A stretch of 64,000 bases of DNA, from NCBI RefSeq assembly GCF_988243305.1, contig NZ_OZ547136.1; one strand, 5' to 3'. Below the pieces are notes generated by a model. It was given only the letters and a program-made list of their open reading frames with translations, searched no databases and was not told where the DNA came from. Within the stretch, counting starts at the first letter, position 1. Every line of letters starts with the position of its first letter. The position numbers and the translations under genes are program-made. Positions 10,311 to 14,941 of the stretch are shown in pieces.

Positions 10311-10317
10311 TATTAAT

Positions 10318-10353
10318 GAGCCCCGATTAAACTTCGGGGCTCATATATCTCTT
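10318..10353 (+). terminator. Rho-independent terminator downstream of mutS
   Basis: GAGCCCCG-attaaactt-CGGGGCTC stem-loop followed by a T-rich tract. Confidence 0.6.
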
Positions 10354-10414
10354 ATCCGATAGATAAAAAAGGAGTAAAATAAACACTATTAAGAACAAAA
10401 CATTCAAGAAAAAA

Positions 10415-11278
10415 ATGAGAATAACGATTGCATCAATAATTTTAATAATTAGCGCCACTGCAATAGGCGCCGAAGATACCCCTTCACATTTTGATATTCC
10501 CGAGCAAGTATTAAATAATATTACGAAGGAATCACGAAATAAACTGCAGGATATCATTGCCAAGGCTCAACATGGCGATAAAGCCTCACAAACGGTGATG
10601 GGACTCATATACCTGAATGGTCTATCTGAAAGTCCTTCAGTGAAGGATATAAACAAAGCATTTTATTGGCTCAACCTTGCAGCAAAGCAAAATTATGATG
10701 AAGCTGAATTTTACTTAGGACAGATTTATCATTACGGATATGATAATACGGGGCCTAACTATCGTATTGCGATATACTGGTATGAGAAAGCGGCAGAAAA
10801 AGGGAATGAACAAGCTCAAATAAACTGTGCGAATATTTATCAATTTGGCCCACAGGAATTCCAAAACATTAACAAAGCCAAGTATTGGCTTCAGAAAGCA
10901 GTACAGAAGGACAATCCTATTGCACATGCAAACTTAGGGATTATCGGAATTCAAGAGAATAAGTATGCTGAAGCTATCCCTCACTTAAAAATAGCGGCAG
11001 AAAAGGGTCAGCGACTCGGCCAATATAATTACGGGACACTTTTTTTTAATGGTCAGGGCGTTCCCAAAGATATACGACAGGCTAAATACTGGTTTGAGAA
11101 AGCTGCTACTCAAAACTTACCTATTGCACAAATTACTTTAGGACAAATTTATGCCTGGGGGCTTGATGAAAATGGCATAAATAAAGAAGAAGCGTTGCTC
11201 TGGTTAAATAAAGCCAAAGCCCAAGGTCAATTTACTGATAAACAGATCAACGCCATTATTTCAAAAAAAATAGACTAA
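10415..11278 (+). CDS. Secreted Sel1-like repeat (SLR) protein
   Basis: 287-aa ORF with N-terminal signal peptide (MRITIASIILIISATAIGAEDT) and repeated A(x)YxLGxxYxxG / A(x)YWxxKAA units; strongly AT-rich coding sequence. Confidence 0.8.
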   Translation: MRITIASIILIISATAIGAEDTPSHFDIPEQVLNNITKESRNKLQDIIAKAQHGDKASQTVMGLIYLNGLSESPSVKDINKAFYWLNLAAKQNYDEAEFYLGQIYHYGYDNTGPNYRIAIYWYEKAAEKGNEQAQINCANIYQFGPQEFQNINKAKYWLQKAVQKDNPIAHANLGIIGIQENKYAEAIPHLKIAAEKGQRLGQYNYGTLFFNGQGVPKDIRQAKYWFEKAATQNLPIAQITLGQIYAWGLDENGINKEEALLWLNKAKAQGQFTDKQINAIISKKID

Positions 11279-11290
11279 CTCCAAACCAAA

Positions 11291-11959
11291 ATGCTCAAAT
11301 CAATGCCATCTATTCGCTATCACAAAATAGAATCATTTAATTATCGCCATATATGGGCCGTTGGTGATATTCATGGCGATTATCAATTATTACAATCCCG
11401 CTTACACCAACTCTCTTTTTGCCCCTAAACTGACTTACTTATTTCCGTAGGCGATAATATTGATCGTGGGCCGGATAGTCTTAACGTGCTACGCCTGTTA
11501 AACCAGCCCTGGTTTACATCGGTTAAAGGCAACCACGAGGCAATGGCGCTTGATGCCTTCGCGACTGGCGATGGCAATATGTGGCTTGCCAGTGGCGGTG
11601 ACTGGTTCTTTGAGTTAAATGATTCAGAACAAAAAGAAGCAATAGACCTGTTGCTTCGCTTTCATCATCTTCCGCATATTATAGAAATCACTAACGATAT
11701 TATAAAATATGTTATCGCACATGCAGATTATCCGGGTGATGAATATCAGTTTGGCAAGGAAGTAGCGGAAAGAGAGGTACTCTGGCCTGTTGATCGCGTG
11801 CAGAAATCACTCAAAGGCGAGTTAAAAGAAATAAACGGTGCCGACTGTTTTATCTTCGGGCATATGATGTTTACAAATATCCAGACATTTGCCAATCAGG
11901 TTTATATTGATACCGGCTCGCCGGAAAGCGGGCGGTTATCGTTTTATAAAATAAAATGA
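11291..11959 (+). pseudogene. pphB: Serine/threonine protein phosphatase 2 (PphB) interrupted by an in-frame TAA at codon 46
   Basis: Reads MLKSMPSIRYHKIESFNYRHIWAVGDIHGDYQLLQSRLHQLSFCP-stop (TAA at 11426-11428), then continues in the same frame ...DLLISVGDNIDRGPDSLNVLRLLNQPWFTSVKGNHEAMA... to 11959; metallophosphatase GDxHG and GNHE motifs lie on opposite sides of the stop. Confidence 0.8.
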
Positions 11960-11963
11960 CAAG

Positions 11964-13675: not shown

Positions 13676-14267
13676 TATTCATTCTCCTGAGAAAAATTCC
13701 GGACCTGCGGCAATCCTTGCCAGCGCCTGGCGTGGGATGTTCGAGGCCAAATTGATCCAGCACGCGGGCTACCACGTGGTGGACAATGTCATCTACCGTT
13801 TCGGGATGGTTATAAAAGGCAGGCATCGGCGGCACCATCGCCACGCCCATGCGTGAAAGTGCGAGCATATTTTCGAGATGGATGGTGCTAAGCGGCATTT
13901 CACGCGGCACCAGCACTAGTTTGCGGCCTTCTTTGAGCACGACGTCCGCCGCGCGCCCTACCAGGCCATCGGCGTAACCGACACGGATACCGGCGAGCGT
14001 TTTCATACTGCACGGAATAACGATCATGCCGTCGGTACGAAAGGAACCTGAGGAGATGGTCGCCGCCTGATCCGCCGGGTTATGACTGAAGTCTGCGAGG
14101 GCAGCAACATCGCGAGCGCTGTAAGGCGTTTCCAGTTCAATGGTGGTTTTCGCCCACTTCGACATCACCAGATGAGTCTCGACATTCGGCATCTCCCGCA
14201 GCGCTTGCAGTAATGCCACCCCAAGAGGCGCACCGGTAGCCCCTGTCATCCCGACGATCAGTCTCAT
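13665..14267 (-). CDS. UbiX-family flavin prenyltransferase (Pad1/EcdB-like)
   Basis: 200-aa ORF MRLIVGMTGATGAPLGVALLQALREMPNVETHLVMSKWA... characteristic of UbiX/Pad1. Confidence 0.85.
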   Translation of the reverse strand: MRLIVGMTGATGAPLGVALLQALREMPNVETHLVMSKWAKTTIELETPYSARDVAALADFSHNPADQAATISSGSFRTDGMIVIPCSMKTLAGIRVGYADGLVGRAADVVLKEGRKLVLVPREMPLSTIHLENMLALSRMGVAMVPPMPAFYNHPETVDDIVHHVVARVLDQFGLEHPTPGAGKDCRRSGIFLRRMNNGI

Positions 14268-14413
14268 TGTTTATTCTCTTAATTGTTCGTATACGAACGT
14301 TATTATTAAAATACGCCTCTGTTTTCATCGCGGCAAGCACTGAAAAGTAACAACATCTTCTTCGTCACTGAAAAACCGCTATGATAGCGGCAGATAGTTT
14401 GCCCGGAGTTTAC

Positions 14414-14821
14414 ATGGCGTTACGAAATAAAGCGTTCCATCAGTTACGACAGCTTTTTCAGCAGCACACGGCTCGCTGGCAGCACGAGTTACCTGACCTC
14501 ACCAAACCACAGTACGCGGTGATGCGCGCCATTGCTGATAAGCCTGGTATCGAACAGGTGGCACTGATAGAAGCAGCAGTCAGCACCAAAGCAACGCTGG
14601 CAGAAATGTTGGCAAGAATGGAAAATCGTGGCTTAGTCAGACGTGAACATGACGCCGCTGACAAGCGGCGTCGCTTTGTCTGGCTGACTGCCGAAGGAGA
14701 AAAGGTACTTGCTGCGGCGATCCCCATTGGTGACAGTGTGGATGAGGAATTTTTGGGGCGTTTGAGTGCAGAAGAGAAGGAGCTGTTTATGCAGTTGGTG
14801 CGCAAGATGATGAGCAAATAG
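14414..14821 (+). CDS. MarR/SlyA-family transcriptional regulator, divergent from the decarboxylase genes
   Basis: ORF MALRNKAFHQLRQLFQQHTARW...; winged-helix MarR-like pattern; start placed at the second ATG of the track ORF (14381 also possible). Confidence 0.75.
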   Translation: MALRNKAFHQLRQLFQQHTARWQHELPDLTKPQYAVMRAIADKPGIEQVALIEAAVSTKATLAEMLARMENRGLVRREHDAADKRRRFVWLTAEGEKVLAAAIPIGDSVDEEFLGRLSAEEKELFMQLVRKMMSK

Positions 14822-14888
14822 GATGCTGATTGCCGGGTAGGACGCTGACGAGTCTTATCCAGGCGACAAAACACACCGACTTCCCAAA

Positions 14889-14926
14889 CAAAAGAAAAAG
14901 GCCAGCCTCGCTTGAGACTGGCCTTT
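14889..14926 (-). terminator. Rho-independent terminator of rpoS
   Basis: On the minus strand AGGCCAGTCTC-aagc-GAGGCTGGCCT followed by TTTTTCTTTTG, just downstream of the rpoS stop. Confidence 0.65.
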
Positions 14927-14941
14927 CTGACAGATGCTTAC

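Follow-up and report, generated by a model that had tools for sequence, protein, structure and literature searches.

A mutS–rpoS segment of Escherichia coli with a hosA–ecdBCD core, a rare Sel1-repeat gene, and three private lesions

As a classic marker, the mutS–rpoS region reports on Escherichia coli lineage and on recombination near a gene for mismatch repair. In a stretch of 64,000 nucleotides from contig NZ_OZ547136.1 (NCBI RefSeq assembly GCF_988243305.1; hereafter, the window), the genes between mutS and rpoS are not those of K-12, which raises the question of which arrangement they represent and how the gene set and its lesions came about. The mutS–rpoS intergenic segment occupies exactly positions 10311 to 14941 (4,631 bp), with mutS ending at 10310 and the rpoS stop codon starting at 14942; its features are listed in Table 1. 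We consider it very likely (probability of about 0.9) that this segment is one known alternative haplotype of the polymorphic E. coli mutS–rpoS region, with hosA and ecdB-ecdC-ecdD as its core.

Table 1. Features in and next to the mutS–rpoS segment (positions are those of the window)
Feature	Position	Strand	Remarks
Terminator-like hairpin	10316..10344	+	11-pair stem, just 3' of the mutS stop
Sel1-repeat protein gene	10415..11278	+	287 aa, 864 bp; Pfam Sel1 PF08238, 135 bits
pphB (serine/threonine phosphatase 2) pseudogene	11303..11959	+	Nonsense codon at 11426-11428
ecdD, small zinc-ribbon subunit D	12001..12237	-	78 aa; two CxxC pairs
ecdC, UbiD-family catalytic subunit C	12248..13675	-	475 aa; intact
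ecdB, UbiX-family flavin prenyltransferase subunit B	13665..14267	-	Frameshifted
HosA operator	14285..14298	.	14-bp perfect palindrome GTTCGTATACGAAC, 18 nt upstream of the ecdB start codon
hosA, MarR-family repressor	14414..14821	+	135 aa; divergent from ecdBCD
Terminator-like hairpin	14895..14928	-	3' of rpoS
rpoS pseudogene (flank)	14942..15920	-	14-bp deletion TCAACATACGCAAC

The gene order in K-12 MG1655 is mutS-pphB-ygbI-ygbJ-ygbK-ygbL-ygbM-ygbN-rpoS. The window shares with it the mutS and rpoS flanks, pphB adjoining mutS, and the final ~46 nt before rpoS, but it is without the whole ygbI-N tetronate cluster and has ecdBCD-hosA and a Sel1 gene. In alignments, the K-12 and O157-type haplotypes diverge from the window immediately after the mutS TAA. 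Within positions 11960 to 14941 (ecdD-ecdC-ecdB-hosA and the spacer to rpoS), only the last ~46 to 53 nt are common to K-12, and the K-12-type genomes match this query solely at query positions 2937 to 2982. An earlier reading of the window, made from its sequence only, had described a Sel1 gene, a pphB pseudogene, a three-gene UbiD/UbiX/small-subunit operon, and a divergent MarR gene in an alternative, non-K-12 arrangement. The coordinates and gene content agree with this description, and the alignment, on which the K-12 arrangement might have emerged after all, showed a segment that differs from it. An Rfam scan of positions 7000 to 17500 detected no RNA family, and a promoter scan gave a result no better than that for shuffled sequence. 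A repeat search for island boundaries found no direct repeats flanking the Sel1 gene or the ecd module; its sole noteworthy hit was a 24-nt inverted similarity between the 3' ends of mutS and ecdB, which is probably due to chance.

The first descriptions of the O157:H7/EHEC-1-type mutS–rpoS arrangement are said to be those of LeClerc in 1999 and Herbelin in 2000. In a later scheme of mutS–rpoS patterns I to IV, this type is “pattern I,” which lacks ygbN and has a mutS–yclC linkage (Ewers et al. 2014, PMC4209514). Judged by sequence, the segment agrees in gene content with this O157:H7-type pattern: it has no ygbN (o454), mutS and yclC/ecdC are joined with no ygbI-N between them, and the order pphB-ecdD-ecdC-ecdB-hosA (slyA-like)-rpoS is shared. 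What sets the window apart from O157:H7 is an additional Sel1 gene of 864 bp, another mutS–pphB spacer, and a pphB gene that is 85.4% identical; the EDL933-like spacer and pphB allele, which correspond to a 1,318-bp mutS–yclC amplicon, are not found in it. The segment is 4,631 bp long versus 3,743 bp in the O157-type comparison locus. Among 5,426 complete E. coli genomes, ecd and hosA are present in 2,379 (44%) and ygbI-N in 4,577, while pphB abuts ecdD in ~804.

The ecd module also sits between mutS and rpoS in Citrobacter, Pseudocitrobacter, and Enterobacter (one to three genomes per genus in these three genera). Because of this shared location, loss in K-12 is more likely than gain here, and we infer that the Escherichia/Citrobacter/Enterobacter group most likely inherited the module at the mutS–rpoS site from its ancestor and that K-12-like lineages lost it. 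Alternatively, the decarboxylase/MarR module might be a recent horizontal gain, i.e., a small genomic island that replaced the K-12 gene set. The GC content of ecdBCD (54 to 58%, versus 50.5% for the window) would fit such a gain, as would the 77 to 88% identity of EcdC across phyla, which suggests mobility; moreover, the four-gene marR-BCD unit is also found at unrelated loci in Pseudomonas oryzihabitans and on another enterobacterial contig, so the unit can move, and hosA has been termed “horizontally acquired” in a preprint (bioRxiv 10.1101/2024.04.24.590444). A recent gain is nonetheless unlikely. Apart from the location of the module in the three other genera, its nucleotide identity to Citrobacter (86.5% for ecdC and 81.5% for ecdB) is close to the value for the flanking mutS (83.5%), its presence in 44% of E. 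coli genomes comes with an allelic divergence of 3 to 4%, and no integrase, insertion sequence (IS), or repeat boundaries were found.

The Sel1 gene and the neighboring pphB allele are outside the common O157-type arrangement and form a rare haplotype. With a GC content of 37.8%, the Sel1 gene is present in 181 of the 5,426 complete E. coli genomes, every copy being at least 99% identical. The Sel1-bearing minority lineage includes E. coli 042 and ST69; these strains and UMN026 presumably belong to phylogroup D. The encoded protein contains at least four tandem repeats and an N-terminal signal-peptide-like sequence. Its orthologues, which likewise are encoded directly after mutS, show 91% amino acid identity in Pseudocitrobacter and 52 to 56% in Citrobacter. 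The protein also resembles EsiB (4BWR; E value of 5e-49) over part of its length without being its orthologue. The pphB allele of the window is 84 to 86% identical to the K-12, O157-type, and E2348/69 alleles and 90.7% identical to that of Pseudocitrobacter.

An exchange between genera is indicated by a ~3.4-kb block that is ~94% identical to Pseudocitrobacter corydidari, versus 85.6% over mutS. The identity to P. corydidari ranges from 89 to 100% across the block and from 47 to 80% in ecdB and hosA. In ecdC, P. corydidari differs from the E. coli alleles at 63 to 81 nucleotides, compared with 44 to 58 between E. coli alleles and ~195 for Citrobacter; P. corydidari ecdC thus falls almost inside E. 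coli allelic diversity. It is somewhat probable that homologous recombination moved this block, which comprises the mutS 3' end, Sel1, pphB, ecdD, and most of ecdC (~10150 to 13550), between Escherichia and Pseudocitrobacter. The minority lineage would then carry a distinct mutS-proximal haplotype, consisting of the mutS 3' end, the low-GC Sel1 gene, and the divergent pphB gene, that was exchanged with Pseudocitrobacter.

P. corydidari and 84 of the 5,426 E. coli genomes have tyrosine-recombinase islands that target the mutS 5' end; such islands may contribute to the traffic at the mutS–rpoS site. They were rejected as the vehicle of the Sel1 haplotype: two of the 84 island genomes carry Sel1 and ~2.8 are expected by chance, so an association between the islands and Sel1 is not supported.

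When 40 genes were compared with those of the closest genome, damage was found in pphB, ecdB, and rpoS only; the other 37 genes, over ~43 kb, are free of indels and internal stops. In pphB, a G-to-T substitution at 11426 changes the GAA of codon 42 to TAA (E42*). This nonsense codon lies 3' of the GDIHG motif and 5' of the GDNIDRG and GNHE motifs, and a full-length PphB open reading frame with the GDxHG, GDxxDRG, and GNHE metallophosphatase motifs is absent from the window; against NF007425, the intact orthologue reaches 452 bits (cutoff, 332). In rpoS, the 14-bp deletion lies between 15495 and 15494 and shifts the frame after codon 142. Both of these lesions had been noticed in the sequence-only reading and are confirmed here, whereas a third, the ecdB frameshift, had been missed. 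A CCCC run (now 13734 to 13736) has lost one C, so that the reading frame changes beyond residue 178 of 197; the product is 200 amino acids long, residues 179 to 197 are replaced by 22 foreign residues, and the new stop is located 11 nt inside ecdC. All three lesions are private, being found in no other complete genome. Over positions 11300 to 15700, no complete RefSeq genome is identical to the window, the best showing 99.5% identity. The segment had been called a “hotspot of gain and decay”; decay is even more extensive than was claimed, but gain is doubtful for the decarboxylase module, because of its mutS–rpoS location in three other genera and a divergence similar to that of flanking core genes.

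The likely scenario is that the strain, on the Sel1-haplotype background, recently gained three private mutations that are inactivating or damaging: pphB E42*, the frameshift in the ecdB tail, and the 14-bp deletion in rpoS. That the three lesions are instead assembly or sequencing errors is improbable. A 1-nt loss in a CCCC run, as in ecdB, is a classic error type, and the absence of all three lesions from every other complete genome would also be expected of errors. However, a general sequencing-error problem was rejected as the cause, since only 3 of the 40 genes are damaged and the remaining ~43 kb is clean; pphB carries a substitution and rpoS a 14-bp deletion, neither of which is a homopolymer artifact; and rpoS null alleles are common among E. 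coli isolates, the rpoS gene of E2348/69 being annotated as frameshifted. A sequencing error is possible for ecdB alone, because its frameshift is in a homopolymer.

The ecdB frameshift could also be read as a harmless change in a nonconserved tail, a view that came from hidden Markov model alignments ending at residue ~178. It was rejected because the EcdB tails from five genera share a conserved ARRWxGL motif, which the frameshift removes. Compared with O157UbiX/Pad1 (PDB 1SBZ; WP_000767724), residues 1 to 178 of the window EcdB are the same except for K2R and A96V, and H164, which allows the use of dimethylallyl pyrophosphate (DMAPP), is retained, while the C-terminal 19 residues are replaced. 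As the lost tail holds a Trp residue that aligns with W200 of PaUbiX at the active-site entrance, the operon's own prenyltransferase may be impaired.

By its protein families, the operon is a non-oxidative hydroxyarylic acid decarboxylase of the VdcBCD/EcdBCD type, a module that is already known (VdcBCD, ShdBCD, EcdBCD, KpdBCD, and BsdBCD; Lupa et al. 2005, as cited in PMC6424909). It shares with these systems the B-C-D gene order, scores above the cutoff for all three NCBIfam models, and the four-Cys zinc ribbon of EcdD; unlike them, its subunit B goes out of frame past residue 178 and is without the conserved ARRWxGL tail. EcdC scores 790.5 bits against VdcC (NF041204; cutoff, 650), and its closest structure is ShdC (PDB 7AE4; E value of 2e-160), the Sedimentibacter 4-hydroxybenzoate decarboxylase. 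EcdD, whose gene lies directly downstream of ecdC with its start 10 nt past the ecdC end, scores 121 bits against VdcD (NF041205; cutoff, 30) and matches ShdD in 7AE4 (E value of 4e-11). EcdB scores 302 bits against VdcB (cutoff, 290), and its core (residues 1 to 178) is nearly identical to 1SBZ. Between the window and O157-type ecdC alleles there are 56 nucleotide differences and 1 amino acid difference, which suggests purifying selection on ecdC. The notion that the UbiD/UbiX-like pair is a second decarboxylase system for ubiquinone biosynthesis, and not for phenolic-acid detoxification or catabolism, can practically be dismissed: UbiD and Flavoprotein domains are found and E. coli UbiD structures are matched at an E value of 1e-46, but EcdC reaches just 173.7 bits against the UbiD equivalog NF008175 (cutoff, 788) while exceeding the VdcC cutoff, ShdC is the nearest structure, and a VdcD-type subunit is present together with HosA, a regulator of a 4-hydroxybenzoate-responsive type.

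The O157 subunit B (WP_000767724), which is the accession annotated in the O157-type comparison locus, is a proven flavin prenyltransferase that forms prFMNH2 from DMAP or DMAPP (PMC6541611). EcdB, as a UbiX-type flavin prenyltransferase, would supply prenylated FMN to the UbiD-type EcdC, which, in complex with the zinc-ribbon EcdD, would by analogy catalyze the reversible decarboxylation of 4-hydroxybenzoate or related phenolic acids to phenol. For decarboxylation of 4-hydroxybenzoate, vanillate, or related acids, the basis is the literature on orthologues. Hydroxyarylic acid decarboxylase turns dietary or preservative-derived 4-hydroxybenzoate into phenol.

The regulator matches PDB 8AGA (“Transcriptional regulator HosA”) with an E value of 2.5e-83 over residues 1 to 134 as well as Pfam MarR, and the gene is 100% identical to the allele of strain Z1323HEC0462. 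The protein is near-identical to HosA of E. coli UMN026/EPEC, with the same operator and flanks and the same divergent orientation to the operon; it differs from the EPEC and O157 alleles by 3 to 6 amino acids, with no evident functional difference. At the nucleotide level, the window has the same palindrome and flanks as the HosA binding-site oligonucleotide published for UMN026 (PMC6261655 supplement, in which the HosA site is given with one extra T). UMN026 HosA releases operator DNA in vitro once 4-hydroxybenzoate (4-HBA) is added (PMC6261655), and HosA is described as repressing itself and the hydroxyarylic acid decarboxylase operon, which 4-HBA induces (bioRxiv 10.1101/2024.04.24.590444, citing the UMN026 HosA biochemistry). 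By analogy, HosA bound to GTTCGTATACGAAC just upstream of ecdB would repress the operon and hosA, and 4-hydroxybenzoate would release HosA and induce the operon. HosA is already in use as a 4-hydroxybenzoate biosensor. The test with hydroxybenzoate that the sequence-only reading proposed may thus be regarded as already done, in effect, for the module through the literature on UMN026 HosA and O157 subunit B.

The ecdBCD module, the HosA repressor, and the pattern I arrangement are already known, and the window is ordinary save for its Sel1 gene and lesions. What is added here is the rare Sel1/divergent-pphB haplotype with its likeness to Pseudocitrobacter, the probable loss in K-12, and the third lesion in ecdB. 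If the exchange is true, the rare Sel1 haplotype is the trace in E. coli of a recombination event between genera at the mutS–rpoS hotspot. These findings leave current understanding unchanged, and the practical value of the window is one of annotation: the strain belongs to a minority Sel1-bearing lineage, is predicted to be an rpoS null that has lost PphB, and carries a decarboxylase operon with a damaged prenyltransferase gene, a defect that the housekeeping UbiX might or might not make up for.

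The segment at 10311-14941 extends exactly from the mutS stop codon (10310) to the rpoS stop codon (14942), and the gene set that the sequence-only reading placed there was borne out, each gene being backed by Pfam and NCBIfam. Since MG1655 (K-12) carries mutS-pphB-ygbI-ygbJ-ygbK-ygbL-ygbM-ygbN-rpoS, the arrangement is not that of K-12, as that reading had observed. The gene content is that of pattern I of PMC4209514, although the mutS-proximal haplotype is distinct; the claim of a described alternative arrangement therefore holds for gene content but not for Sel1 and the pphB allele. 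All central points of the segment are already in the published literature. Upstream, the TOBE-domain (molybdopterin-binding-like) gene between fhlA and ygbA equals c3292 of CFT073 in PMC4209514; it is present in E2348/69 and a D-lineage genome, whereas K-12 and the O157-type locus lack it.

Genes of the mutS-rpoS region and its flanks (Pfam/NCBIfam assignments)
Gene	Window position	Strand or orientation	Remark
fhlA	4492-6606		upstream flank
TOBE-domain gene	6612-7079		
ygbA	7118-7462	minus	
mutS	7749-10310		
Sel1-repeat gene	10415-11278		
pphB	11303-11959		
ecdD	12001-12237	minus	
ecdC	12248-13675	minus	
ecdB	13665-14267	minus	
hosA (MarR gene)	14414-14821	divergent from ecd genes	
rpoS	14942-15920	minus	
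nlpD			next after rpoS in gene order

By sequence, ecdB, ecdC, and ecdD (subunits B, C, and D) encode a non-oxidative hydroxyarylic acid decarboxylase of the VdcBCD/EcdBCD family. For subunit C, the score was 790 bits against NCBIfam VdcC (cut-off, 650) and 174 bits against the UbiD equivalog, below the cut-off of 788; subunits D and B scored 121 and 302 bits against VdcD and VdcB (cut-offs, 30 and 290). Residues 1-178 of subunit B are near-identical to 1SBZ, the O157:H7 Pad1/UbiX-like protein, and the ShdC/ShdD complex 7AE4 matches subunits C (E, 2e-160) and D (E, 4e-11). The subunit B accession in the O157-type locus, WP_000767724, is that of a protein that makes prenylated FMN from DMAP or DMAPP (PMC6541611). 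The regulator, correctly assigned to the MarR family before, can be refined to HosA by its match to PDB 8AGA, “Transcriptional regulator HosA” (E, 2.5e-83). The ecdB start is preceded, at a distance of 18 nt, by a perfect palindrome, GTTCGTATACGAAC (14285-14298), whose flanks are identical in sequence to the UMN026 HosA binding-site oligonucleotide of PMC6261655. 4-Hydroxybenzoate is reported to release HosA from DNA (PMC6261655), and HosA to repress its own gene and the decarboxylase operon (bioRxiv 10.1101/2024.04.24.590444). This mechanism is known from orthologues, with which the window genes are grouped by sequence-level membership. Because ecdC differs from the O157-type allele at 56 nt but only 1 amino acid, it is under strong purifying selection. 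EcdC amino acid identity is 96-98% in Citrobacter and Enterobacter, 84-88% in Vibrio, Pseudomonas, and Serratia, and 77-82% in Actinobacteria such as Amycolatopsis, Nocardia, and Streptomyces; its conservation is unusually high.

All population counts refer to 5,426 complete E. coli genomes, of which 2,379 carry the ecd-hosA block (at least 80% coverage), 4,577 carry ygbI-N, and 804 show a direct pphB-ecdD junction. Arithmetic from these separate counts, not a per-genome cross-tabulation, gives inferred shares of about 15% for the ygb-less O157-type layout, about 29% for ygb and ecd together (E2348/69 type), and about 55% for ygb only (K-12 and B2 types), classes that agree with patterns I-IV of Ewers et al. 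2014 (PMC4209514). The Sel1 gene is present in 181 genomes, including E. coli 042 and an ST69 strain, with every copy at least 99% identical. Homology to K-12 and O157-type genomes ends directly after the mutS stop codon and restarts only at the pphB start codon. The K-12, O157-type, and E2348/69 pphB alleles share 92-97% identity with one another; the window's own allele shares 84-86% with them. The GC content of Sel1 is 37.8% (window, 50.5%), and its nearest non-E. coli homologue, in Pseudocitrobacter corydidari, shows 91% amino acid identity (Citrobacter homologues, 52-56%). Sel1 and this pphB allele form a rare haplotype that was probably exchanged separately.

The gene order is mutS-Sel1-pphB-ecdD-ecdC-ecdB-marR, four sugar-related genes, and rpoS in P. 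corydidari; mutS-Sel1-(unrelated gene)-ecdD-ecdC-ecdB-marR-rpoS in Citrobacter; and mutS-ecdD-ecdC-ecdB-marR-(three genes)-rpoS in Enterobacter. Nucleotide identity to Citrobacter (ecdC, 86.5%; ecdB, 81.5%; hosA, 75%) lies within the range of the flanking genes, mutS (83.5%) and rpoS (90%). This is in keeping with a module inherited vertically in this place, so that its absence from K-12 is better read as loss than its possession here as gain. The four-gene ecd-hosA unit may be mobile, as it is also found on another enterobacterial contig and in Pseudomonas, with EcdC identities of 77-88% across phyla. Given the synteny in other genera, the module was probably retained rather than gained; of the proposed hotspot of gain and decay, decay stands, with three lesions.

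Relative to close lineage-mates, pphB has a GAA-to-TAA change at codon 42, ahead of the GDNIDRG and GNHE metal-binding motifs; ecdB lacks one C of a CCCC run and is out of frame beyond residue 178; and rpoS is a null allele, frameshifted from codon 142 onward by a 14-bp deletion, TCAACATACGCAAC. The E2348/69 rpoS is likewise annotated as frameshifted. The pphB and rpoS lesions had been recognized from the sequence; that in ecdB had been overlooked. Across 40 genes over ~43 kb compared with the closest genome, Z1323HEC0462, only these three carry an indel or internal stop, and, lesions aside, rpoS, hosA, ecdB, and ecdD are identical. None of the three lesions was found in any other complete genome; they are recent, private, and clustered in 4.1 kb. 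That the ecdB frameshift affects a dispensable tail was rejected, because an ARRWxGL motif is common to the tails from Citrobacter, Pseudocitrobacter, Enterobacter, another enterobacterial contig, and Pseudomonas. Its Trp aligns (by offset from the HMM alignment) with PaUbiX W200, on the C terminus at the active-site entrance (PMC6541611). The functional effect is uncertain, because the PaUbiX W200H variant still prenylates, the housekeeping UbiX yields the same cofactor (established knowledge, on which PMC6541611 also builds), and the ecdC Shine-Dalgarno sequence and start codon are unaffected. The shifted frame stops 11 nt inside ecdC, a geometry shared by native Enterobacter genes. Fused EcdB-EcdC open reading frames of 585-677 amino acids (P0123-P0128 and P0133), which arise where the 3' part of ecdB is frameshifted, occur in several assemblies of other Enterobacteriaceae; such recurring damage would fit redundancy with UbiX or may reflect assembly errors.

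Outside the window, tyrosine-recombinase islands occupy the mutS 5' end in Z1323HEC0462 (locus L009, 42031-49901; integrase, Sll1717-type ATPase, and relaxase), Yu5 (L013, 3258-9866; other cargo and three recombinases), and P. corydidari (L005, 4712-6169). Homology of these loci to the window stops at window 7775, and mutS is then 855 amino acids long. The island junction occurs in 84 of the 5,426 genomes and showed no association with the Sel1 haplotype among them (both in 2 genomes). In Z1323HEC0462, the closest relative, the rpoS-hosA spacer also carries an inserted IS200C (L009, 34151-34609), and an IS200-family insertion adjoins rpoS in an ST405 strain (PMC4209514); IS200 elements seem to have targeted this spacer repeatedly. 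The window's type I-E CRISPR-Cas locus (~26461-28019 and 28520-37171, cas3 to cas2) is 100% identical to that of Z1323HEC0462 from casA to cas2, and its array is longer than the latter's 395-bp array.

Differences from the D-lineage genome 2021CK-01784 cluster strongly at 6351-6495, 7346-7566, 9203-9926, and 15572-15995, and in 9927-15484 they amount to just 12 substitutions plus the one-base loss in ecdB; the four patches form a recombination mosaic that takes in the surroundings of mutS and, in rpoS, the 5' half. Sliding identity to P. corydidari is ~85% across most of mutS, 89-100% from ~10150 to ~13550 (100% at 10349-10498), ~80% in ecdB, and 47-75% around hosA. Of the 1,428 nt of ecdC, 63-81 distinguish the P. 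corydidari gene from E. coli alleles, compared with 44-58 nt among E. coli alleles and ~195 nt for Citrobacter. This rise in identity and the closeness of the P. corydidari ecdC to E. coli alleles argue, with a probability of roughly 0.6, that Escherichia and Pseudocitrobacter have exchanged a ~3.4-kb block by recombination. A 24-nt inverted similarity (10263-10286 and 13712-13735; 20/24, with a 13-nt exact core) pairs the 3' ends of mutS and ecdB, both in their own coding direction; its two arms are close to where the shared block begins and ends, and one stops at the ecdB frameshift site. It is probably due to chance, as ~0.2 such 13-mers are expected per 4.7 kb. Because the P. corydidari ecdC is E. 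coli-like, there is a hint that the exchange ran from Escherichia to Pseudocitrobacter. While promiscuous exchange in this region is already known, the ~3.4-kb exchange would be a new detail.
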